A DNA stretch of 64,000 bases, taken from Blasia pusilla. Taxonomy: Eukaryota. The notes below the pieces were generated by a model. That model was not told the origin of the DNA, ran no database searches, and saw only the letters and a list, made by a program, of their open reading frames with translations. Position numbers and translations under genes: made by a program. Below are positions 600 through 47,950 of the stretch, one piece after another. Numbering within the stretch: the stretch's first letter is position 1; each line of letters starts with the position of its first letter. The stretch spans positions 15,252,001 through 15,316,000 of the forward strand of contig CM114271.1 in NCBI GenBank assembly GCA_050084515.1, read 5' to 3'.

Positions 600-1600
600 T
601 TGAGGCATCTAGGACTGATGAAGCTTGATTGTTTTGAAGTCACAGAAAAGAGAATCAGTATCGATCAGTGATGGCACTGATGGGTAGACGACCAGTTCTG
701 CCCTCTTCCTATCCACAAACTGCCACGAACCTCTTTGGGAAAGACTAGTAGTTGAGATGCCGCAGGAACTGGTCAACCATCAATGCGTTTGTTGTAATGG
801 AGAGACAGCCCTTCTAAACGGTTTACGGCTTTTGAGGTGTTCGTTTGTGAGAAATCACATCACTATTGACACTCGGGCGGACTCGCAGGGGCATGGGCAA
901 CAAATTGCAGGACTTGGGGAGTGTAGCCAAGCCAAATCACAGCAGGTGGGCAAATTCGTAAGCTTTAATAATGAAGAGAGAAGGAATCAATCAACTTCTT
1001 GTCTATGGGACTTGGATATACAAGACTTGCTGCACCAAAGCATGCCCGATCTAGCAAAAGAAGACAGGACAGCCCCAGGTGTTCCAACTCTAGCAACCAT
1101 ACACTGATGAGGGAATTCAGCAATCTCAACCAGATTCCTACCGAGCATGAAAGCACTCACCCTTAAGTCAGGGCTCTGGAAGAGTCCAGGAAATGCCGAG
1201 TAATGGTAGCTGCAACTGAAAGGTGCCGCTTTGCAGCGTGGAGTTTGTTTGACTTGCAATCTCAGCATAGTCTTCACTTTTCGTGAGTTGAAAGTTTCTC
1301 CTCTCCCTCCATATCTGAATGTGGCCAGTGCTTGGATTAGCTCAGTGGGTATGGGGCCGGAAAGATAAAAAGCTTGTTCAGTTGGTTTCGCAAAATTCAT
1401 GGAATTGCAGTACTGTCTCTTCCTTTCCCCTTCATTTCCTAGCAGTGGGTTCTTCCTTTTGCAAAGCTCCTCATGTATATATCAACTGTCAGAGATGTGG
1501 GTGTTTGTACAGCGAATCCAACATGTTCTTGCTAGTACTTTTAGGAAAATCATCGACTGACATGCTTAATTCTCTCAAGTCGCATATTCTTAAAAGCTTC
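600..1600 (-). mobile_element. Possible heavily degraded LINE (L1-like) ORF1 remnant
   Basis: Frame-broken minus-strand peptides (IWLRLLN..LEHLG..LLD; LPKSCNL followed by a frameshifted Cys/His cluster near 870-920) loosely resemble the L1 ORF1 DUF4283/zinc-knuckle region. A Pro/Ser/Arg low-complexity tract follows toward position 1. The match is weak and by eye only. Confidence 0.25.
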
Positions 1601-2127
1601 GAAAGCTCTTGATCTTAGAAATTTAGAAAGATGGTCATCATAGAGAAAGTCCTCATTCAGCAGTTTCATCGCGTCTCCGGCACTGCCCTGGATGGGTGCG
1701 GGGGGAGGACGAGGTGCAGAAATTATCATATTAAAGGCGGAGGCTCCGTCATGTTGTGTTCAGAGCTAACCTTACATAGTATTGTTGGTGGGGAGGTTCC
1801 AGTATCAGCTAAACGCTATCTACTGACTGGGGGACCCGAAAACGTTTCTTACCAGTACAGCAGATTATGGCAGTGTACGTAGGCTATTTTCCGTACGAAC
1901 AACTCTGGTAACACCAACTTTACACTTTCATAGTGTTGTGTGAGTGCTAACCATCCATAGTGTTGTTCGTGGGGACCTTCAAGAATCGTCCAAGAAACAA
2001 TATCTAAGTGACCTGATTTAGGCCCCCAAAGACACTTTTTACGTGTACAGCGGCCTTGGGCAGTGAATTTGGGCAACTGTGTGTGACGAACTCTGGTTAG
2101 AAATTTCAGCGTTGGTTGTTGCGTTTC

Positions 2128-5100
2128 ATGGGAGGCTTCACTCAATATAATGCCTCTCGTAGTCTTGAGACCATAACCTTAGAGAGAAAATTGCTTGGGG
2201 TCTGTTTTAGTATTGAGAAAATTTCTTGTCCCGTGGACAGTGGAACTTTGCCAGAAGGCATAGAAGCTCCGCAGTCGAGGGACCAAAACATGAGGCGACT
2301 CTACGTGCACGATGAAGACCGCGTGCTTCTCAAGGTGACTATATCCACAGTGAGGCGACCTAACGAGTTGGAGCGATCAGATCCAGGTTTCTTAGGCTAT
2401 GCGCAAGTCATGTCATGATAGATACTCAACACCAAGTCTTACTTCGAGGCAAGCCAGACACGAATGAGCTCAGTGAAGTGTCATTCATAGCTAAAACTTC
2501 TGCTCATTTCCTCAAGCGATGCTTCAGGTGGTGCACTACGGGAACCCAACCTCGGTGGGCATCGAATTCGATGAAGCCGGGGAATGGCAATTCAAGCCCT
2601 TGTGGTAAAGGAAAATCGGAACCAACTTGAACTTCATGCTCTGATTTGCACTCAGCGATATTGAAATTATGAGCTTACAAATAAACCGATTTGATTTCGA
2701 AGTTTTTTATTGTGTTGACGGAACCAGGAAAACTTCCTTCACAGCTTAGTCCTTCTGGGGAATCTATCACTCCCTCGCATTGTGAATTTCAGCTCACCCT
2801 CTGTAATTCCCGTGCTGCTAGATTTTCTGATCAGCTGAATAAGAATGAGTTGTCGGCTTCGTAGCCTGAGCTGTCCTTGGCCTCATTAAAGTATGATCAG
2901 AGCTGCAGGACTCAGCGTGCCGGTCCACGGGCCCAAATCTACTTTCAGCCATCATCTGTAATCTTCTCACTCATTTCTACATCTCCTCGATGAGGTCCAT
3001 GTTGATAATTTTCTCCTAACCGCCATGAGGAGAGGGAAACTGAATATGACGCACGCTTGTACACAATTTGTTTAATAGTAGGTAGCAACGATCATAAATG
3101 ACTTACTCATAATAAACACTGTAGGGCGAAGGGAGCTGAATTTGATACATGGTTGCCCCCAATCAATCTATCGAGTAGGTGGTAGTAAGAATTATGGATC
3201 CTGATAAGAGTTTACCGGAGACTAGTTCCACATTTTTACCCCGGACAAATATAACTACTCCACGGTAATTCCACACCAAAGAGCAGACGAGCAGACGAGC
3301 AGATACAAAGTCTTTCCATAATCCTTTCTGTACAGATATTGGCCACTATCAGACCATACATGCGATGGAACATGCTTGTTGAACACCAACACTAGCTTGT
3401 AAAATCCTACCAGGTGAAGGCAGCAATTGTAACCTGTGGAGGGCTTTGCCCGGGTCTCAATGACGTGATCCGCCAGGTACTTAGGCTCATATCCTGCTTC
3501 GGTACTGCATGCTATCTTGTCGGATGGAGTTTTTTTTTATTGTTGCTCTCCAAAGAGTAGGCAAGGAGTGGGATTGAACATCATTTCACTTAAAAGCTCT
3601 TTGAGAAGGGGATGGGAACGACAGATCTTGATAATGTCGAACCTTCAAGATGCACCTTTCACTGAAGAAAAAACGTCACTCTTTGAACTTTTCTGATGCT
3701 CGAACAGGTGGTGTTTACTCTTGACGTGTATGGAGTAAAGGAGATTTTGGGCATCCAGTATGGTTTCAAAGGCTTCGTCGATCCTAAGTATCCACCTGTT
3801 GCAGTTACTTCCCTCTCTCTGTTTATTTGAAAGAAATTCCACATGGGGGTTCGTCACAACACAGTTTGGGCTTTCACTCTGATGACAAATCTGTTTTACG
3901 GGCACTCTTCTGGAACTGGGCATCTCTGTGAGGAATCACAGAGATGCTCAGTACTGTAGATTTAATTCTTAAAGGGCTCTGTGTCGTATCCTAAATGTAC
4001 CTTGTCATTCTGTGATTCCATTCTAGAGGAGTAGCTGAGGCAAAATTGTGCTGGACAAGAACGGGATTTAGTCCAACTTTCAAAGCATGATGAATTTGGT
4101 ATTGTCTTCTGGTGGGAACAGCTGACCCGCAAGTTGGTGTCACGTCTACACATGGCTGGCGGGAGCTTCTTAGGTGTCTCTCGGGGTACTCCAGATCTGA
4201 ACGACGTGGTGGATAGACTGCAGGTTTGTCAAACATGAGTGAGTCTACCCATGTCAACCTTGACGGTTGTGATCAGACTTTTTCTATGGCCCCTTGGGTC
4301 CCTCTTTTTTCTTTCCAGATTTATTGAGTCTTTTTCAGTCATTAGGGAGATTTTCTGCTCACTGTGATTTACACCCTTCTCAGCTCTGGTCATCATTTTT
4401 CGTCCAGTCCTTTAGGTTCCTTTGGTTTCTTTCATAATAAGTTTTTCCTATCCTTCAATTCTTAGATTGTTTCTTTTGTCTAGACTTGGAATGCTCATTT
4501 TTTATTTTCTTGTAGATAGTGGGTAGGTGCAGTATGAGGGTCAGTCCTGGTATTAGCTTTTAAATGTCTCTAAACAATCAGGGTGATAGACACTAACATA
4601 GCATTACTAAGTGACTCACATCTTAATCTGTTGGGAATCTCTGGATCTCTCGTTCTTTTTTGTTATTGTTTGTGTGCAGGATTGGGGCATCAATTTTTTT
4701 TTTGTGATTGGTGGCAACGGCTCACATGCTGGGGCGCATGAGATTTACAAAAGAGTAAGATCTGCGATGTGTATGGCATGTGTTTCACATTGCAACTCTT
4801 GGTCTGGAAAAGTTAGGTTCCATTCTCATAGCTTCTTTGGTACTCCACCTACATGAGCTTTGATCATGGGCAGGAGGATCTCACATTCTATGTTTTCTTT
4901 CAGTGTGTGGAACGCAAAATGAAAATTGCAATCGTTGGGATTCCGAAAACAATTGACAATGATCTACAACTTTTTGACAAGACTTTTGGTTTTGATACCT
5001 CAGTAGAAGAAGCGCAGCGTGCTATCAATGCTGCCTTTGTTGAGGTACTCATTGTGATTATTAACACCAAAATTTGTAGTTAATTGTACTATCCCCTGAA

Positions 5101-21491: not shown

Positions 21492-22099
21492 TGTTAAGTC
21501 TCTCAGGATAGATCGATGAGATCTAGTAGAGCGCCTTCGTGAGTAGCGGAGGACATGCTCAGTAGGTCAAGGATGACCTACTGAGGCCCTGGGAAACCTG
21601 AGAGAGCAGGTTTGCCCTTCGTTTCGGTTCATTTGGAGCCATATTGAGGAACTTACTATTTTAAGTAAGTACAATTTTGAATATGTGATCGATTTTTTAT
21701 TTTTGGTAAGTGACCCTTGACCTCCTACATCAGGTCAAGAGCCAAGGAGGTGACTTGGGAGCATAGGTTACCATGGAGAGAGTTTGGGAGAGGCGAAGGG
21801 TATACCTCAAGGAGAGAGAGCTTGAGAGCTCATTCTCTCTTTGTTTAACCTCTTGGCATGAGGCGGCGGAGCTATGGTCTTGTTCGCCTTGTGTGTGTAA
21901 CCCAAGCCTCTCATTAGGAGATTGGCTTTGGTTTGACATTAAGAGAGACATGTGAAAGTGCACACATGTGAGAACTATGGTGTTATGAGAGAGATTGGAT
22001 CTTATTTTACAAAGAGATATTTTGGTTCTTTTTGTCTCGTTGTTTGGATGCCATGAGTTAGCATGGGATCGTGCGTGTTTGTGTGTGTGTTCGGTGACA
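21492..22099 (+). mobile_element. 608-bp TG...CA unit corresponding to the two fused ends of the 41484-50044 element (solo-LTR-like, or an internal-deletion derivative)
   Basis: 21492 to about 22016 aligns to the reverse complement of 50044 to about 49520. About 22013-22099 aligns to the reverse complement of about 41568-41484. Identity is high (roughly 90% in segments checked by eye). The unit begins TGTTAAG and ends GGTGACA. No TSD was found. Confidence 0.85.
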
Positions 22100-24130
22100 G
22101 CGATATGTGTTGTGTAGCAATGTGTATGCGCACGACAGTGTCGTACACATACACATCGCTGGTCACATCTACACATCATAGAACACCGATCTTCCCAACA
22201 CAGGGGTCGATCCAGACATAAACGAAATACACTCACGCATATAGACCCAGACCGCACAACAAAATCAGAGAAAAAACGGCTCACCCAACCTAAACTCGAC
22301 TCTTGGATTTACATCCACCCCCCGCTATGAAGGAATCCGGATGCTAACGCCCTAATTCCTATACATATACAGACATGTGCAAGAGAGGTGCTCGTAAAGC
22401 CCAACATGAGAAAGATGGTTTGGTATATCCATCTTTCCCTCTCTTATACCATTATGAAGAGCCAAAAGGCTCTACCAAAAAAAAGAACCATCCGGATGGT
22501 AACCTGCATGCATATGTTACAAGATTACCGTGGACTCAATCAATGAATCACCTTACTGACAAAGACCATAATAGGGAAATCGACATAAACGCCATTCTCA
22601 ATGCAACAAATCTATTGCCAATCTTATCCGACATCTCAGGACGAAGTTACACCCGAACATCCGACAATGCAGACATACCAAAACTCTTCAATCCTGTGCG
22701 TCCTCGAAGACCTTCTAACTTCTGTTTTGCCAAAAAGAGGAGTACATTGTAAAGTGGCGTAGGTGTTCCAAAATAGCTCAAGATAATACTACTAGATCAA
22801 ATTACAAGGTAAATCATAATTTGCGTGCATGGTAAAATACAGAATGTTATGGTTGAAACAAGCACACTGTTGCAATGATAGTTTTATGCCCATGATTTTG
22901 AAGTGGAATCTCTCAACTTACTACATCCACCTGCAATGACTGAAACGAGCACCTTGTTCCAATACTAGTTTCATGATCCTGTCGATTTTGGCATGAAATC
23001 TAGACTTTTGGCATACATGGGGAAAATGGAAAAGGTAATTCCTTCCATGCTTGTGAGGATTTCTTCCGTCAACACAACATGTGATGAGCACAAGAGTCCA
23101 TTTTATAAAAAATGTCTACTTCTTCTAAAGATCAAACCTATCACTTCATTATGGCCTCTACATACACTCGGCCTCTACATACACTCGTCGTTATTTTTCT
23201 CACTATCTAACTTATCCATGTGTCCTTCAAGCGAATACAACAATTAATCCTCCTCTCCAATTCCCCCCTCTCAAGGCTGCACACTGGTTTGAATACATTC
23301 GAGTCCAGGGAAACGCATTATCCCATCTAGTAATCAAATTTCATTTCTTTTAAACCAACATCTTTCAATTGCAATAGAGATTTGCAAGGATGAACTAAAA
23401 ACTTATAAGATTTCACAATAAAATGGAGGTTTAAAACTGGAAACCCCTGCTACATTCATGGTTTGTTGCACCCAACATTTTGATACTTCCCACATGACTC
23501 GGACTTTCCCACATGACTCAGCCTATCTTTCGATTACAAATTATTATTCTGAGAGGCAAAGCCAGAATACTTACTCCATTCTGTGACTTGGGTGCGGCTA
23601 GTACATGCCATAGAAAAAGAGAGATTTCAACTTCCCCTCCCTTAATCAACCTTACACATAGGCACAAAACTCCACCACAAACTTCCAGAAATAGTCGTGA
23701 ACGGTAGAGATCCTCCCTATGGTGTGAAAATAAAAGAATTTAACGAGTGATCCTAAAGATAAGGAGTTTCTGCAATACCAGCTGCCTCCACCGGTAGATC
23801 GATACAACAGCACCCATGTTGAGAATTCTAGGTTGATTGATATGAAGTTGGCACCCAGCTAGCGGAACTACCTTATTGAGAATACCCTTCAAAACCCTAT
23901 GAAAGGCAAAGTTACTACAGATTCAGGGCCAAAGGTCTTGGGATAAGTTGTGAGACCTCCTGTGGAATAGAAACTTTCGACATTGACCAAAGCCTGCTTT
24001 GTACATATAGTAAGCTGAATGCGCTCATCAAAACTTCTACTAAAGGCAGTTTCGGTTCATTCTCTGTCTAAGTTGTTGCCAATATGATACATCTATTGGG
24101 TAAGCCTGCTTACTTGAGCCTCCTTCATTA

Positions 24131-39814: not shown

Positions 39815-41755
39815 TTGAAGAAAGTGGAGGCACCGTTAAATTGAAAGTGGTGAAAGAAGCTTGAGGAGTAGAGGAGACGCATTATTCCCCGAAGTTGTGG
39901 CATTTATAGTGAGGTTCATGCATTTTTGCCCTTTGGAGATGATTTGAGAAATTGGAGGTGCACGTGAAATCAGTTGTAGGTTGCTCAAGACCACTTGGAG
40001 GCTGTTGTAGCAATTGCAGAAAAATTTGGAGGATCTACAGGTGCGTTATTTAATTGTTTCTTTCTCAACTTAGGAAATTGCGTGTTTTGTTGGATCATTT
40101 CAATTTTCCTGCCCCATTTATTCACTAAGATTGTGGCACCAGACTCTGAATGCACTTTTGCTACAATCAAAAAACTAAATCCTTATAGTGGACTTTAAAC
40201 TCTTCCCATCGCAAGTACTCGAGTACGCTAGTGTTAATCGACCATGATCGCAAGAGCCTCTCATTGTTTTAAAGAGCAATTTTGTGTTCGAAATTAGCTG
40301 TCGCACAATCAATACAAATCTATTTCAATACCGCTTGTTGTAAATGAATCACTTATCTGAAAAAGTTGCATATATGAACATACCTCATGGTTCTGCAGAT
40401 TGCGGGCTACGGGTCCAAGGCACGACATGAGGGGTATATCTCTGTCATGGAACCCAATGTATGATGATTGGTAGTACTATTCAAACTCCTTTGTAATTGC
40501 AACTTCCTAATATCACTCTCTTGGAAATTTTGTCTCCTTGCAAGATTGAGTAATGTATTTTATCTTACAACCCTATCAATAGTAGACAATAGAGGAATTG
40601 TGGAATCACTTGGTAAGGTGCAACTTTGTGGAGGCAACACAACTCCACTGAGAGTGGAAGACACGGGATCTACTCTTGACCTTACTTCATCCCCAACATG
40701 GGGAAGAGTTATAGAATTATCTATGATTTCATGTTCACCTTGATTAGGAAAAGTGGTAGGTAAGTCAACTCGTGGTGATGCATGAGTAGTGGGCCTGATT
40801 GTGGATGCATTCTTAATAGCTTCATGGAGTGCACTGTTAGGTAATTCGACTCTTGGCGACTTATCAATGTGCTCTATATGAGCTCCTTCAATTTCTCCCA
40901 CTATTACTCCATCCTCTCGCCTTGGTGATATATAAATGTCCTCTATGTGAGCTCCTTGATTTTCTCCCAATATTACTCCATCCTCATTGGAAGGCCTGAA
41001 AAAATAAAGAATAGGTCAACATACAAATCAAATATGAACATTTAATGGGTTTAACACACAACTCTAATTACATGAAATTAGATATATATACCTTATGAGT
41101 CAGCAGTCGAAATGTCCATATTTGGAATATTCTCAACAACCAAAGCAGACTCAACTTCAACATGAAGCGCTTTTCTTCTTTTTCTATACTCTCAATAGTA
41201 TGTTCTATTTTTCTCTTTGAGACCTTCCATTTTATCAACGCGAAAAACACGTTTTTGTTTTTTGGCTTCGCAGAGAGGAACTTTTCGGAAATCACATTTA
41301 TCGATAGGATTTAAGGGAATAGGAAGTCTGGAGCAACACATCCATATTACAAAGAAAGAAAATGAAATTTTAAGTTAGAATTATATAGGGCAGAAATATA
41401 TTAGATTTGCATAATGTTCGTCAATGAAGTGAACTCACGTTGAAGATGTTTCGAGGGCGAGTTATTGTGCACATGTACATCACTGTCACCAAACACACAC
41501 ACAAACACGCACGATCCCATGCTAACTCATGGCATCCAAACAACGAGACAAGAAGTACCAAAATATCTCCAATTGCCCCCTAGGTGGTGGTTAGGTCCCT
41601 CTAACTCCAGATAGCCATCTATCCCTACCTACCATGACATACATCTCTCGGACGCTAAGAGCAAGAAGGCCGGGTGCTCATGTGGCCCCATCGTTAGTCG
41701 CCTTCTTGTCATCCATATCAGAGACACAAGTCGGAATGTAGAACTACCGACTCTA

Positions 41756-41893
41756 TGTACATCTGGGACACATCCATCGTCCCTAAGGAACCCTAGTGAG
41801 AGGTGGCGTCAAACATGCCATATGCCATCCTCTCGAACACGCATCACAGACTAGCATAGTGGATGCACCATCGATGGAACCACACAACATACA
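41756..41893 (-). pseudogene. PHD finger at the integrase C-terminus
   Basis: CMLCGSIDGASTMLVCDACSRGWHMACLTPPLTRVP*GRWMCPRC has the C4HC3 spacing, interrupted by one in-frame TAG. Confidence 0.9.
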
Positions 41894-42099
41894 CCGCAAG
41901 CCTATAGGAATTATTGCTAAGCTCGGATCAACTGTACCGTCAATTTTCGGAAGATGATATGGCGCACAGTTACGCACATGGTCCTTCCAAACCATACCAT
42001 CGCATTCCTCCAATAAGAGAACATCGGATGGCAAAACCTCACGCACTCTCAAGATGGTGTGCCTTATAGTCACATCCAACATCGTGGGTGCCGTCTGCT

Positions 42100-42785
42100 G
42101 CAAGTAGGCATAGTCTCCTTGATGAAACCTCCGGATAGTAGATCAATAATCACCTCCCCGAATAGTCGCATACCTCAACGTATCCTGATGTTGCGCAATC
42201 GCCAAGTTTTCAAACGCCATGGACATCACTCTCTGAAACAACTCATCCCTCTCAGAATATGCTCGCATCCATATATCAGGGTCATCAAGGTTCAACACCT
42301 CACCAACATCTCGACGAATGGCCGTAGGTAAATCTGGCTCTTGGCCATACAAAAGCAAGTACGGTGAGAAAGACGCTAAGGATGCCTGCCTGCTGAATCG
42401 GTATCCCATGGCCAACCACGGCAACTAGAGGTCCCAATCTCCTAGGTGACCTCTTTGCAAGCCATACTTGCGTAGTCCTCTCTTCACCATCTGCACAACC
42501 CGCTCCGCTAGTCCATCCGCCTCAGGATGATCTCTCGAAGTAGTGCGGTGGTCGATCACTGCCTGCTCACACAAGGCCTCAAACTCCCCGCGGACCTCTG
42601 TACCCTGATCTGTCAACACCTCAACTCGTGCGCGGTAATGACTCAACACTCGATCTAGGAAGGCATACGCTACTCCCTCACTTGCTTTGTCCGGAAATGC
42701 AACCAACTCTATTTGCTTTGAGAAGTGCTCGACCATCACCAACACATGACGACTATGGCGCTTCGTCAAAGGCAAAGGTCTTGCA
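42100..42785 (-). pseudogene. Retroviral-type (rve) integrase core and C-terminal region
   Basis: PLPLTKRHSRHVLVMVEHFSK..VLTDQGTE..IDHRTTSRDHPEADGLAERVVQMVKRGL..WDL*LPWLAMGYR..SFSPYLLLYGQEP. Confidence 0.9.
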
Positions 42786-42789
42786 AAAG

Positions 42790-43700
42790 CGGCTTTGCAA
42801 TCAAGCTAAAACCCTTGACATACTGTCGATAGAAGTTTGCCAATCCCATGAATGCACGAACTCGACTCACATCCATAGGGCGTGAAATGCATGAAATAGC
42901 CTCTATCTTCGTCTATTGCACACGAAGGCCCCTTGGGTACATCATATGACCCAGGTACTCAATCTGGTCGTAGAAGAACTTGCACTTGCCTAGATATAGC
43001 TTCAGCCCATGTAATTGCAATCGTCAAAAGACCTCCTCTAGATGTCCTTCATGCTTCTCAACCGTAGTGCTAAAGACTATGATGTCATCAATATAACACC
43101 TAGCAAAATCCAGACTTGCCAAGATCCTATCCATAACCCTTTGAAACTCAGTCGGGGCATTCTTTAACCCAACTGGTAAGAATCTCCACTAGTACAAGCA
43201 ATCCTTCCCGTGAGGATCAATGCCCCAAAATGCCGTCTTTTTCCTGTCCTCCAATCTGATAGGCAATTGATGGTATCTGGCTCGAAGATCCAATGAAATG
43301 AAGACCTTTGCATGCCCAATCGCATCAAAGATCTCCTCAAGGGTGGGCATGACATACCTATCGGACTTTGTCTACTGATTGATGGGTTGGTAATCTCCAC
43401 ACATCCGCTTATTCGTCTAGTTGCCATGCACATCCTTCTTGGCGGGCATGATAGTGGCAGATGCATACTCTCCATGCGACATCTCCACTAGTCTTGCTCC
43501 TACTCTGAATCAAAGCCCTCTCCATGTCAGTGTACCTGTAGGGTCGTCGAAAGATCGGCGTGTCACTTGACAACTCAATGCAGATCCTTGGACCCTTCAG
43601 CGTACCCAAATCATGCATACTAAATGCAAAACAACTCCTATAACTCCTAAGGAACTGGAGTATCCGACGCTGCTCTCCTCCTGTCAACTTAGGACCCATA
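42790..43700 (-). pseudogene. Ty3/gypsy reverse transcriptase
   Basis: PIFRRPYRY, RMCGDYQPIN, RYVMPTLEEIFD, SLDLRARYHQLPI, KTAFWG, LPVGLKNAPTEFQRVMD, CYIDDIIVFS (YIDD at 43084-43095), KCKFF..IEYLGH and VRAFMGLANFYRQYVKGFSLIAKPL. Confidence 0.93.
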
Positions 43701-44019
43701 TTTGGCTCCCAAGTCTCCATCGTGACTATGGTAGGACTCTCGTGGTTGCTATGGTGCAACCCCGTCTCAAACAATAGAACTCTTATCTCCATGTGTAGTA
43801 CCCAGAACCACACTCAATGCTGTGGCTACCATCTCCTGGCGTACTTGCAAAACATCCCAAGAAGTCCAAGGGTATCTCTCCCGATCATCCCTGGTGTGTC
43901 GATCTCCTCGAGTCTCGCCCCCAGCCATTGCCTCAACCATCTTGGTAGGCATGGGGCTCACCAACGCAAGAGCTGTGATCTGTCACATCCTCAAACGACG
44001 TTGCTCAGCTGCTCCTAAG

Positions 44020-44970
44020 CTAAAAATCCATGTCAAGCAGTTCAGGTCCATCGCCTAACCCAAGATATGACGTCGTAATGCCTCCGATAGTGATGGTACT
44101 ACCGTCACTCCTGTGGGGAATCCTATCGCTCCCTCTCACTCATCGGCGTTGGGCTCCACCAACTAGTGTACTTGGTCATCCCAAACCAAGTCAGGTCCGG
44201 CCTCCTTGAATGCATAGGAAGCGGAAAAACTCACCAATATGGGAAAGGTTGCCCGTGGCGTGCCAATCTTGTTGACCACAGTCAATGTCGGTCGATCATC
44301 TAGCCTCACTGCCTGTGATCGATGGCCCGGATCCAATATAGAATCCACCAACAAATCGGAGGGACGATCCACTCTCGCATAAGCCCTCCGCAACACCTCA
44401 TGTGGTACCAAGTTGGTCCACCAAAGATGCGGGCGATGTGCTCTAGAACCTGCACTCGCCGTATCTAACAATATTGCGGGGCTGATCCATGCGCACACGT
44501 GATGTGCACTCGTCACCACGCGGGACCTCGAATCGCCCAAAATCGGCACATTCTCCAAAATGTACGTTGGAGAACGAGGCTGATGCTCTTGTAAATGTCA
44601 CAAGATCCGCATCATCTCCCAAAATAACCTGGACCGAGTGTCAACTTACCCGCTATCTCGTCCAGCACTCAATTGGCCCTGACACGGCCAACCAGCAATG
44701 ACCATGTCTCTATGGTCCCTACCCGCTCCAAGTCCTGCGCCCCCAACAATGAAATGTCCCTCGGTAGGGAACTCTGGTATCCCTAAATGGCAGACGCTAA
44801 CAACAAGTTGGGAAAACGGAGGCGTAACAGCGCCACATGGTGAAGTAAAGCGCGCCTCGCAAAATCATCAATCTCCACATACAGGTACCGCTGCACGCGG
44901 ACTCCAGTGTGCAAAACAACAGCTAACCCAGTGTTGATCCCTCCAAAGAGATCCAACACCAGAATAACCT
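44020..44970 (-). pseudogene. DNMT3-like C5-cytosine DNA methyltransferase domain embedded in the retroelement polyprotein
   Basis: Motifs occur in canonical order: I VLDLFGGINTGL, II YLYVEID, III RDISLL, IV DMVIAGWPCQG (PCQ at 44679-44687), RSRLFWEMMRIL, VI YILENV, VIII RAHRPHLWWTNL, IX EPNADE*EGAIGFPTGVT and X RRHILG*AMD. Confidence 0.9.
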
Positions 44971-45379
44971 CCTTTGGGATGCACCACACAATTGGGGTGG
45001 TGTCCAAAGAGGTCATAGCAGCACTCCTACCTACCTGGGGTTCCTCTGACCCGTCAGGCTATGGTGCAAACGTCTTGCTCCACGCGGTCTGCACATGCTT
45101 GATGGCTAAGCGTTGAAGCTCCTCAGTCGAGCCCCAAAGCGGCACCTCTCCTCCACGGACTTATGCGGTTACCATGACACTCCTCTCCATAGAAATGTCA
45201 GGAACGGGAGTATCCTCTACATGGACATGTCCCTCAATCAAATCACTACGCCAAGTGATGGCACTACTAAATGTTGCTAAGGTCGCCATCTCTCTTGGCT
45301 GTCGCTCGATCACTGCACTTGTGAATCGAACGGGTAATGACCTAAGGCGCCCATCACCTCACTGCCATCCTGGTCTGTG

Positions 45380-45700
45380 GAACGCTGACTCCTCCTAGTA
45401 ATCCAGGGAAAATCCCATGAGGTATAACACTGCTCCACCAACCAAGATGTTGTAGGACTCTGCATCAATCACTATCGCCTTGCTCGCACCACGGACTCAT
45501 CTGTAGGATGTTCTGGGCGAATCCTCACCACGACCTTCTGTCAGGTGATATATTGTGTGGTACTTGCTCCATCCAAGGATTTCTGTATCCAGAATGGACA
45601 ATGCTCCACATCGGCTCTCGTCAAGTCCAATCCTCTGAATGACGCTTTCCCCAACATATAGAGTTGCGCTCTTGAATCCAACAAGACGTGTTGCGGACTA
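45380..45700 (-). pseudogene. Aspartic protease (retropepsin)
   Basis: HVLLDSRAQLYMLG is a decayed LLDSGA motif (Asp codon at 45676-45678). A downstream YNILVGG-like motif lies near 45440-45460. Confidence 0.7.
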
Positions 45701-46199
45701 AAAGCTCTACCTCCGGGACTCACCAACTCGAAGACCTCTCCATGGTTATCCAACAACACAACACTAGTAGAAGCCATGGCATGCTCTATCGCGGGTCTAA
45801 CGGGCATCTCCGCCATCCTAGCAGCTGCAACCTGCCATGAATTTGATGTGGATGGCCCGAGCATCCGCTCCAAGGGCAGGTCCATCACCTCCTCTGCAAT
45901 CACCTCTGAATGTGTTGCAGGAACTCCAACTCCACGCTCACATAGCGTAGCGGCCAGCCAAAAAACCTCGACGGGCGTACCTCCCAACGTCATAACATCG
46001 GAAGCGAAAAATAAAAGAGAGCGGTACACAACGGTAGCCGCCCCCAACAATGTGCTTGACACATGCCCCTCGAGAGCATCAACAATAGGAGTCGTTGTAC
46101 TCGCTTCTCCCATCGCCCTCCGTGCCTGCACACCAACAACATCACCAACTCTCCAGGAACTCTAATCAAGACCCATCGATGGGGTCTTCATTGCCTTGG

Positions 46200-47950
46200 A
46201 CAACGTGAAAGATTGAGGAAGACTAGTCTATTTCATGGCTTTCCCTCGCTGTGGATCCACCTGTGCGGCTACTCCATGCATCATAATTGCGATGGCCTCC
46301 ATCTGGGCAACCCCGCACATCCAATCGGGATCTTCCTTATCTCTGACTGCTCCATATGATGTCGATGCCACGGATCCGGCATCGGGTAACCTCAAGGCCA
46401 GAGCGACAATATGCTCTTGTAGCTGATTTATCTTAGCAGCCATCCCAGCCTCACGCCCGACGTCTCCCTCGACGTGTCTAGGTGATGGGACTCTACCTCC
46501 TCCACGGGCAGCTCCACCACCTTGTCCGACAACTCCATCTCCTCGTCCCCCAACAAGACCACCTAGTACACCATCTCTAGGCCCACCGGACCAGCTACTC
46601 GCTCTAGTGTCCTCTCTGGCCCTCGGTCCGGACGTAACTCAGGGTGTAAACTGAAACATATGGCGCGTGTATAACCATACCTCTGACAATAGTCACACTC
46701 ATAACCTCTTGTTGTTGCACCATCTCTCCTCCATGCTGAGACACACGTCCATGACCCTAACGAGTGCAATCACGCTGATGATGGGCTCCACCACATGACC
46801 AACAAGTAATCATAGACGACTGCTGCTGAGCGGCATATGAAGGCGTAGGTCTCTGTGGCATAGCCTCTTGGTATCCTCCTAGAGCTCGTGGTGCCAAAGT
46901 CAACCTATCTCGGAGTCCACTTTGTTGCACTAGTGGTGTAGACAATCGTGACTGCTCTCACCCAAAACCTATGGTGGCTACGCTCTCCTTCACCATGTTG
47001 CACTCAATATTCTCGGCTGTCCTAAAAACATCTCTCAATATAGAGGAGGTGTTCATAAGAAGCATCCCCTCCCGCACCCGTGTCCATAGGGTCCGGTCCA
47101 GCATCGCGTACCATGACTGGATACCCTGAGCCTCTATCACCTATGAGTGACGTTGATCAATCGGCGCAGGCGAGTGTAAGCCTCACGTAAACTCTCACCC
47201 GAGCACCTCTGGAAGTCATGGATGCTCTGCAACTTCTCCGTCCGTACCCCTTGGTAGCTCGCCCCCAACTCAACGAAAAACTCAACCACGGGGTTAAACT
47301 TGGGACGAACCCGACTAGACGGTGCAACTGCTCCAGTGCAACCTCCTAAAACATCACTAGTGGAAGAGGAAGTAGCCTCTCTTGACTCCTCCTCCTCATC
47401 TGGGAACGGCTCCGTCCATGACACATAGTCTGGGTCATAGTAGAGTCGCCATGCCTCAATCTCTTGGGCATGTCTGTGGGAGAACTCATGGGCACCTCCT
47501 CATGTTTAGAGGGGGTGCCCGTCCATGGGCACCCCCTCTAAATGCTAGAACATACCATTGCATGTTGTAAACGGGTTGAACCCTCTAGAGTTCCTAGCCC
47601 GCTGTGAGTCACACCAACTCCTAAACTCCGCAATGAAGTCGTGTAGCTCTATAGTGCCTACAACACGTGAAAACCTACGCGGTCCTCTATCTCGGTCGTC
47701 CATCTTGTACGCCCAACTAGTAGGACCACTCAATGTGTACGGTGGATCACTAACACACTCCTCTACACGTTTCCCCTCGTCTGAAGATAACATAGAAGGA
47801 GATCGAGGTGGTCTCTCACGTGGAGGCCCTCAAAACCTCGCACCACTCCGGGTAAACCCTCCAAAGCTACTCTCAGGTCCACTACCTTGCCTCGAAAGGA
47901 TGCCGTGATGACCCTTGTGCCCCTCTCTCGCAGTCACTCTCAACCTTGCG
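46200..47950 (-). pseudogene. gag-like region with two zinc knuckles
   Basis: RFSRVVGTIELHDFIAEFRSWC and FQRCSGESLREAYTRLRRL; one intact knuckle CWSCGGAHHQRDC (CX2CX4HX4C) and one degenerate knuckle CDYCQRYGYTRAIC. Confidence 0.75.

Follow-up and report, generated by a model that had tools for sequence, protein, structure and literature searches.

A PHD finger at the C-terminal end of a decayed Gypsy-Dnmt3 polyprotein in Blasia pusilla and its possible part in chromatin-guided integration

Introduction

What does a retroelement gain from an integrase that ends in a PHD finger, and is such a finger coupled to the DNA methyltransferase (DNMT) that the same element encodes? The question is raised by a 64,000-nucleotide stretch of the Blasia pusilla assembly GCA_050084515.1 (contig CM114271.1, positions 15,252,001 to 15,316,000 of the forward strand; "the window", numbered here from its first letter), in which a dead Ty3/gypsy-type element of the Gypsy-Dnmt3 kind closes its polyprotein with a finger of this family. 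An initial annotation of the locus had read the domain as a chromatin reader joined to a DNA-methylation writer, after the manner of animal DNMT3. Retrotransposons that carry chromatin readers or DNA-modifying enzymes bear on the ways in which mobile elements adjust to the epigenome of their host or manipulate it. Gypsy-Dnmt3 elements have been published and PHD fingers are known from transposons in general; what the finger does in this lineage is the subject of the present analysis.

A PHD Finger Closes the Integrase Frame

Positions 41756-41893, read on the minus strand, translate as CMLCGSIDGASTMLVCDACSRGWHMACLTPPLTRVP*GRWMCPRCT and encode a complete C4HC3 PHD finger whose zinc ligands follow the canonical spacing C-x2-C-x11-C-x2-C-x4-H-x2-C-x14-C-x2-C. 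With its single in-frame TAG (41783-41785, codon 37 of 46) treated as X, the finger matches PF00628 across the whole profile (positions 1-47 of 47; E-value 1.9e-11, 44.2 bits against a cut-off of 24), the search that the initial annotation had put forward as a check. Translation and profile thus agree with its description of a complete finger, interrupted by one TAG, at the end of the polyprotein, and the translation likewise confirms Gly instead of Trp two residues before the zinc-ligand His (SRGWH). The finger is the last domain of the pol frame: a TAG at 41753-41755 terminates the frame one residue past the last zinc ligand, and in the close relatives P0001-P0017 the protein stops 0-12 residues past the finger. 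The plus strand of the same region holds nothing comparable.

The finger shares one frame over 350 codons with an integrase catalytic core (PF00665, E-value 8.4e-9, 42425-42805), and this frame contains three stops, TAG at 42425-42427, TGA at 42143-42145 and the TAG within the finger. We considered whether that last TAG could be a coding codon and rejected the idea, given the TGA in the same frame, the many stops and frameshifts elsewhere in the element, and a column that is variable in relatives (E, K, D, A, S and others). The core remnant and its linker (42143-42805, minus strand) lead into the integrase C-terminal SH3-like beta-barrel (41957-42142, minus strand; AlphaFold2 model and Foldseek), which lies directly upstream of the finger. 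In a Pfam scan of the 129 C-terminal residues, the families found at an E-value of 0.01 or below were PHD, PHD-1st_NSD and PHD_2; at that threshold the scan returned no ADD profile, which leaves this region outside the ADD family, and no chromodomain (PF00385), which leaves it outside the chromoviruses. The claim that a PHD finger rather than a chromodomain is fused to the integrase therefore stands, and the finger occupies the C-terminal end of the polyprotein, past the integrase barrel, in the position that the chromodomain has in chromoviruses.

Conservation of the Finger Among Relatives

Using the 350-residue integrase-PHD read-through as the query among longer proteins, we found 114 relatives. 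According to precomputed Pfam annotation, 100 of these carry PF00628, and 12 of the 14 others span only 28-81% of the query. The finger is thus far from absent in other copies, the outcome that the initial annotation had named as fatal to its reading. The finger again stands at the end of the polypeptide by its Pfam coordinates, for example at residues 1470-1513 of 1516 in P0012, 1735-1777 of 1783 in P0093 and 983-1027 of 1033 in P0002. The few named matches, on which the host range of the family rests, come from Klebsormidium nitens, Sphagnum fallax, Calypogeia fissa, Pleodorina starrii, Tetrabaena socialis and Cymbomonas tetramitiformis; the best named partial matches are those of Sphagnum fallax (74%) and Calypogeia fissa (79%), and the K. 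nitens protein P0096 (KFL_009030040) matches the integrase part of the window with an E-value of 5.1e-67 and 52% identity.

A strict C4HC3 pattern past the integrase is present in 95 of the 114 relatives. Seven of the 19 exceptions were inspected (P0082, P0083, P0090, P0093, P0095, P0097 and P0105): P0105 has a longer loop, P0083 is degenerate and P0090 lacks the first C-x2-C. P0082, P0093, P0095 and P0097 form a subclade that ends in W-x-C-x2-H, where the last zinc ligand is His and not Cys. In an alignment of 42 sequences, the eight ligands (C84, C87, C99, C102, H107, C110, C125 and C128) are invariant together with P119 and W123, and conservation is 90% or higher at D100 and G105. A metagenome scan returned 80 related loci, 77 of which reach the end of the finger and 49 of which have all ligands; in 32 of the 80, all ligands are present and the aligned 129 residues contain no stop.

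The ratio of nonsynonymous to synonymous substitution rates (dN/dS) over 45 PHD codons is 0.052 for the pair L014/L013, 0.073 for L017/L018, 0.12 for L017/L024 and 0.039 for L039/L077, with dS near saturation in some of the pairs. The adjacent integrase part gives similar ratios in intact lineages (0.02-0.07); for one pair from the decayed family, the ratio over that flanking part is about 1.1. By these codon comparisons, the finger is under purifying selection in intact lineages. Family-wide conservation together with dN/dS of 0.04-0.12 therefore marks the finger as a selected part of the integrase throughout the family.

Integrase-PHD fusions may also extend to animals: in the ESM Atlas, the nearest neighbor of the integrase-PHD part of P0012 is an 80-protein cluster labeled "integrase zinc binding/PHD-finger/integrase core" (score 0.94), in which PF00628 is found in 99% of members and the commonest recorded phylum is Mollusca.

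Likely Ligand Class and Proposed Role

PHD fingers differ in what they bind, and the residues that decide between methylated and unmethylated lysine 4 of histone H3 (H3K4) lie in a few places. In complexes with the H3 tail, the Asp of a C-D-x-C motif contacts R2, and this Asp and a P-x-G-x-W loop hold A1 and R2; in BHC80 and AIRE, an acidic residue just before the first zinc-ligand Cys contacts unmethylated K4. The specificities of solved PHD fingers, where they go beyond the titles of the structure entries, are general background. The window finger and its relatives have both of the first two features, the C-D-x-C Asp (D100, in 39 of 41 relatives) and the P-x-G-x-W loop (P119 and W123, invariant).

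An AlphaFold2 model of the last 129 residues (41756-42142), built from the 42-row alignment, has a mean predicted local distance difference test (pLDDT) score of 85.5 and a predicted template modeling score of 0.60, and consists of a five-stranded barrel (strands in residues 11-62) followed by the finger, which has block-mean pLDDT values of 84-94. The modeled finger superposes on solved PHD fingers with root-mean-square deviations (rmsd) of 0.6-1.5 Å over 46-51 residues, at 39-48% identity, and so has the PHD fold. The Foldseek matches confined to the finger are the ATXR5 PHD with H3 (0.9 Å, 45% identity), DPF3b (0.6-1.0 Å; DPF3, too, is solved with H3 peptide), BHC80 (1.5 Å), the MOZ DPF (48% identity), the BAZ2A PHD with an unmodified H3K4 peptide (1.1 Å) and the UHRF1 PHD (1.1-1.2 Å; 3asl, 3sou and 3sox), with 3t6r being a complex with the unmodified H3 tail. 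The closest solved chains by sequence are CHD4 PHD1/2 (E-value 9.8e-18), PHF12, KMT2C/D, KAT6A/DPF2/DPF3 PHD2 and KDM5A/B PHD1, and further close chains are PHF21A, ATXR5, BAZ2A/B, UHRF1 and AIRE. The window finger has in common with the readers of unmodified H3 among these (PHF21A/BHC80, BAZ2A/B, ATXR5, DPF2/3, KAT6A PHD2, CHD4, UHRF1 and AIRE) the string L-x-C-D-x-C and P-x-G-x-W-x-C-x2-C, and differs from them in being part of a retroelement integrase and in lacking the acidic K4 contact of BHC80 and AIRE. By its sequence neighborhood, then, the finger resembles the class that reads H3 unmethylated at lysine 4 (H3K4me0), short of established membership, and H3K4me0-type reading is plausible on sequence and model.

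Several points weigh against this reading. The window has L82 and R83 where an acidic residue would stand N-terminal of the first Cys, and relatives mostly have L, F, H or Q two residues before it and A, P, K or S one residue before it. With the acidic contact absent, selectivity for unmethylated K4, as opposed to plain binding of the H3 N-terminus and R2, is uncertain. Identity of 40-48% over about 48 residues to H3K4me0-type readers does not fix specificity, and the partners of PHD fingers are not limited to histones.

The copy in the window is dead, as its stops, frameshifts and large deletion make plain, so nothing acts there now; the locus has no activity of its own and the role proposed here concerns active elements of the family. 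We give a probability of roughly 60% to the reading that in such elements the finger engages the H3 N-terminal tail as long as K4 lacks trimethylation, with lower confidence in a true preference for K4me0. Bound in this way, the finger would tether the complex of integrase and complementary DNA to nucleosomes away from active promoters and would bias integration, by analogy with what chromodomains do for H3K9-methylated chromatin, and the DNMT3-like enzyme of the element would work apart from it, perhaps in the methylation of the new copy. Should the finger indeed recognize H3 tails without K4 methylation, the family would represent a second, independent way of guiding integration by chromatin, and the many intact relatives would make a natural system for the study of how the choice of reader shapes insertion landscapes.

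The competing view that the finger serves the integrase through a partner other than the H3 tail, such as a chromatin protein of the host, a different surface of the histones or a factor for nuclear import or stability, and has a role unrelated to the state of H3K4, is in our judgment unlikely. The missing K4-contacting acidic residue of BHC80 and AIRE speaks for it, as does the finding that D100 alone stands out as a conserved polar surface residue. Moreover, the top Foldseek rows for the model are two-domain Tudor+PHD cassettes (PHF1, MTF2 and UHRF1), which read combined marks; these rank first because an integrase barrel followed by a finger resembles them in outline, and at high rmsd only the succession of domains is alike. 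Set against this, all close solved neighbors whose titles name a ligand bind an H3 peptide, and what holds the H3 N-terminus there are the P-x-G-x-W and C-D-x-C features, both conserved in this family.

The DNMT3-Like Domain and Its Relation to the Finger

The DNMT3-like cytosine methyltransferase remnant of the window (43998-45481, minus strand; tblastn and a search of solved structures) contains about ten stops; its best solved match is DNMT3A (E-value 4.4e-5), and the DNMT parts of relatives match it by tblastn with E-values of 1e-27 to 1e-40. Motif I (DLFGG) does not share the frame of motifs IV (PCQ) and VI (ENV), which lie together, and PCQ, ENV and the C-terminal motifs follow one another in native, unrearranged order. 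In an intact relative, L014, the first open reading frame (ORF) matches PF00145 with an E-value of 1.8e-13. Among the 114 relatives, a DNMT is present in 46 by blastp with the DNMT part of P0012 as the query and in 15 by the precomputed Pfam annotation.

Two architectures are found. In the first, the DNMT precedes the reverse transcriptase (RT), as it does in the window, in K. nitens P0096 and in P0012, P0093 and others; in the second, seen in 38 proteins, Pleodorina P0023 among them, it is placed between RNase H (RH) and the integrase (IN). DNMT3-like-bearing Gypsy elements are thus not confined to streptophytes, since the second layout includes Pleodorina starrii. In a FastTree of the integrase-PHD part (a quick tree of 107 rows without outgroup, from which P0101, P0102, P0106, P0109, P0111, P0112, P0113 and P0114 were excluded for a matched part shorter than 300 residues), the two layouts fall on opposite sides of one branch (support 96), so that the layout changes once; P0096 is in the same clade as the window (29 rows, support 98).

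L014 has an ORF for gag, protease (PR) and DNMT (1006-5085) that ends in an in-frame TAG (5083-5085) and is followed in the same frame by an RT-RH-IN-PHD ORF. Many proteins of the window's clade, including all of P0002-P0010, start about 100 residues before the RT, as would follow from an ORF boundary like that of L014; the TAG boundary may be conserved, with possible read-through. In the other clade, DNMT and PHD share one uninterrupted ORF in L020 (2182 codons), L070 (2092), L054 (2034), L029 (1906) and L065 (1893), and L030 (55-10882) has a single ORF of 3609 codons with PR, RT, RNase H, DNMT, integrase and PHD that runs well past the finger. Single proteins with both domains also occur as P0012 and P0093, in the order PR-DNMT-RT-RH-IN-PHD.

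These shared ORFs, and the 46 relatives with a DNMT, are what favors a coupling like that of DNMT3, in which the finger would sense H3K4me0 and guide or activate the DNMT of the element, with methylation placed where K4 is unmethylated. Such a coupling is least unlikely in the clade that has the DNMT directly upstream of integrase and finger, which would allow a mature DNMT-IN-PHD protein. For the lineage as a whole we nevertheless hold it to be improbable. The finger is of the canonical PHD type, and no ADD family was returned at an E-value of 0.01 or below; the DNMT of the window's clade precedes the RT and is far from the finger; and in L014, the only intact close relative, a TAG parts the DNMT ORF from the PHD ORF. 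As a rule, the element's own protease cleaves such polyproteins. Relatives also carry the finger without a DNMT, among them P0050 and P0058, where the gap from RNase H to integrase is only some 200 residues, and P0031 and P0090, which have a finger and no blastp match to the DNMT; the PHD therefore works without a writer.

The parallel with the coupling in DNMT3 drawn by the initial annotation is accordingly not supported in the form given. A DNMT3-like remnant does lie in the same element, and the element has in common with animal DNMT3 a reader of the PHD zinc-finger superfamily and a DNMT3-type catalytic domain in one gene product. Unlike animal DNMT3, however, it lacks the ADD architecture (GATA-like plus PHD), and its reader is on the integrase and not beside the methyltransferase, with RT, RNase H and integrase in between. 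With a finger that falls outside the ADD class and belongs to the integrase, the idea of a DNMT3-like reader and writer is an analogy only, and DNMT3-style autoinhibition with release by H3K4me0 is not suggested by any of the results. More speculatively, the PHD-bearing integrase and the DNMT3-like domain could be one ancient chlorophyte-streptophyte module in two architectures, the second of which could yield a DNMT-IN-PHD protein, a retroelement analogue of DNMT3 that the finger would bring to H3K4-unmethylated nucleosomes and that would carry out integration at these sites and methylation of the new copy or of its surroundings. We rate this as a long shot; if true, it would amount to a "stealth" strategy of self-silencing in safe chromatin.

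H3K4me3 Reading and Chance Origin

Compared with the H3-tail binding favored above, an opposite preference, in which the finger would read trimethylated H3K4 (H3K4me3) and send integration to active promoters, is very improbable. Precedent exists, in that portions of a preprint describe PYGO-like, K4-methyl-reading PHD fingers in cnidarian retrotransposons (bioRxiv 10.1101/2021.11.30.470311). The residues of the present family tell against it. In ING2 and BPTF, the H3K4me3 cage includes a Trp two residues before the zinc-ligand His, and at this position 88 of 95 relatives have Gly and one has Trp; the position immediately N-terminal to the first Cys holds A, P, K, S, R, M or E in 41 aligned relatives, never an aromatic residue. 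The aromatic cage of ING/BPTF-type H3K4me3 readers is thus absent from the window copy and from the family, and ING, BPTF and TAF3 are missing from the best 60 sequence matches and the best 50 fold matches. A fortuitous arrangement of cysteines, or an exon captured from the host and without a role in the element, for which only the broken state of the window copy can be cited, is refuted by the Pfam score (E-value 1.9e-11), by the identical placement of the finger in 100 of 114 relatives, by its invariant ligands and by dN/dS of 0.04-0.12.

Comparison With Known Elements

The nearest published counterpart is KnitGypsy-Dnmt3 of K. nitens, a DNMT3-bearing Gypsy element reported to have repeats in the order A-coding-B-A-B (de Mendoza et al., 2018; PMC5890265). 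The window element resembles it in its Ty3/gypsy-type pol and in an unrearranged DNMT3-like domain within the polyprotein, and the A-coding-B-A-B layout recurs in its relatives L064 and L008; it differs in being a dead copy of a different, more bryophyte-like lineage. The term PHD has no occurrence in the wording of the main text and three supplementary files of PMC5890265, the drawing of Figure 4c lying outside this count. A 2026 bioRxiv preprint refers to "streptophytes (Gypsy-DNMT3)" and to DNMT- and DAM-bearing chromovirus-like elements; its text mentions no PHD finger, "PHD" occurring solely as a fellowship in the acknowledgements.

Chromoviruses have in common with the window element a chromatin-reader domain at the C-terminal end of the pol or integrase frame, and their chromodomains are reported to steer integration into heterochromatin (Gao et al., 2008, cited in PMC6673714 and in two bioRxiv papers). 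In contrast to chromoviruses, the present lineage has a PHD finger in place of the chromodomain, and the expected mark is an H3 tail without K4me3 and not H3K9 methylation. The sole chromodomain-bearing relative among the 114, P0114, is very distant (E-value 3.1e-5).

Chlamydomonas is reported to have a PHD-bearing long terminal repeat (LTR) element, REM1, said to have been described by Perez-Alegre in 2005. PHD fingers in transposons are otherwise well documented: sections of PMC6673714 state that chromodomains and PHD occur widely among retrotransposons and that the PHD fingers may read histone tails, passages of bioRxiv 10.1101/2021.11.30.470311 report that PHD and Chromo co-occur with RT and integrase domains and likewise suggest the reading of histone tails, and PHD is a common accessory domain of C. 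reinhardtii transposons (PMC8557442). A figure legend of PMC9940879 lists Gypsy-7a_cRei with a PHD before the integrase and leaves a DNMT unmentioned. REM1 and Gypsy-7a_cRei are thus, like the window element, green-lineage LTR retrotransposons with a PHD in pol, a likeness drawn from descriptions only; unlike in the window element, the PHD of Gypsy-7a_cRei precedes the integrase and its legend names no DNMT.

No description of a PHD finger in the DNMT-bearing Gypsy lineage was found in the literature searched, the scope of which did not extend to the bioRxiv supplements or the REM1 paper. What appears new is modest: a whole DNMT-bearing lineage uses a PHD finger where chromoviruses use a chromodomain, and this lineage spans chlorophyte-like and streptophyte-like hosts with two positions of the DNMT.

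Anatomy of the Window Copy

The finger belongs to one dead element on the minus strand, which extends over about 41.5-49.5 kb; these limits, the 5' end being approximate, follow from a step in GC content (0.49-0.52 in the element versus 0.37-0.40 in the flanks) and from comparison with relatives. By blastn and tblastn of the window, it is the sole copy there. Read 5' to 3' on the minus strand, the order is gag, DNMT3-like domain, RT, integrase and PHD. Gag remnants (46602-47829, minus strand) match residues 58-437 of L014 ORF1 by tblastn and have no Pfam match; a knuckle-like motif, CX2CX3HX4C, can be made out by eye in an ORF at 46757-46957. The stretch at 45520-46014 (minus strand) matches residues 569-759 of the same ORF by tblastn, its protease-bearing part, in which residues 698-747 give a weak aspartyl-protease match. 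Downstream of the methyltransferase, the RT remnant (42787-43813, minus strand; tblastn) is frameshifted, has five stops and gives a weak PF00078 match at 43189-43371. Pfam searches with the DNMT, gag and RT pieces are mostly negative because of decay.

A deletion of about 355 codons has its junction at 42787 (minus strand; tblastn against L014 ORF2 and P0012). Residues 337 and 693 of L014 ORF2 both abut this position, leaving a clean junction with residues 338-692 gone, and residue 765 of P0012 aligns to 42787 with the next aligned part starting from residue 1160 (window 42817). The deletion took the RT thumb, RNase H, the integrase H2C2 zinc domain and the start of the core. The Ty3/gypsy order of pol is kept in the window for RT and the rve core, RNase H and H2C2 being deleted, and the full order of RT, RNase H and integrase with H2C2 and rve core is present in P0012, P0002, P0093 and L014 ORF2. 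The segments of the window that align to L014 by tblastn contain 23 stops and at least eight frame changes. The ratio of observed to expected CpG is 0.71 in the element and 0.57 and 0.82 in the flanks, which is uninformative on past methylation. The other ORFs of the window of at least 130 residues (n = 32) match no credible Pfam family.

Terminal Repeats

No flanking direct repeats of at least 60 nucleotides (nt) were found within 38-52 kb, nor by blastn with a word size of 7, and by this measure the copy has no LTRs; none were found in the relatives L014, L027, L011 and L003 either. Comparison of copies does reveal the A-coding-B-A-B layout in L064 (6514-7080) and L008 (5072-5640), with B of 114 nt and A of about 337 nt, and the copies L027 (2034-10675), L011, L003 and L001 end right past the first B. 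In the window, a 3' untranslated tail (41576-41752, minus strand) is about 71% identical in nucleotides to this related family by blastn. Homology ends at 41576, which corresponds to position 10556 of L027, five bases short of the start of the family's B, as judged from the eight 3'-most alignments listed (L003, L004, L007, L008, L011, L027, L064 and L066).

A probable B-type terminal repeat (41479-41569, minus strand) is located where the 114-nt B of the related family begins. It is the one B-like repeat beside the element, and no copy of A was found in the window. The same sequence recurs in inverted orientation 19 kb away, at 22014-22104, with 95.6% identity over 91 nt; that copy has a weak match to the B of the related family (70% over 71 nt, E-value 0.002), and no coding remnants of the element were found near 22 kb. 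Just outside the element, a minus-strand open frame of 151 codons without a Pfam match (40560-41015) contains a pair of tandem 65-nt units (40852-40985) that are 86% identical and 69 nt apart.

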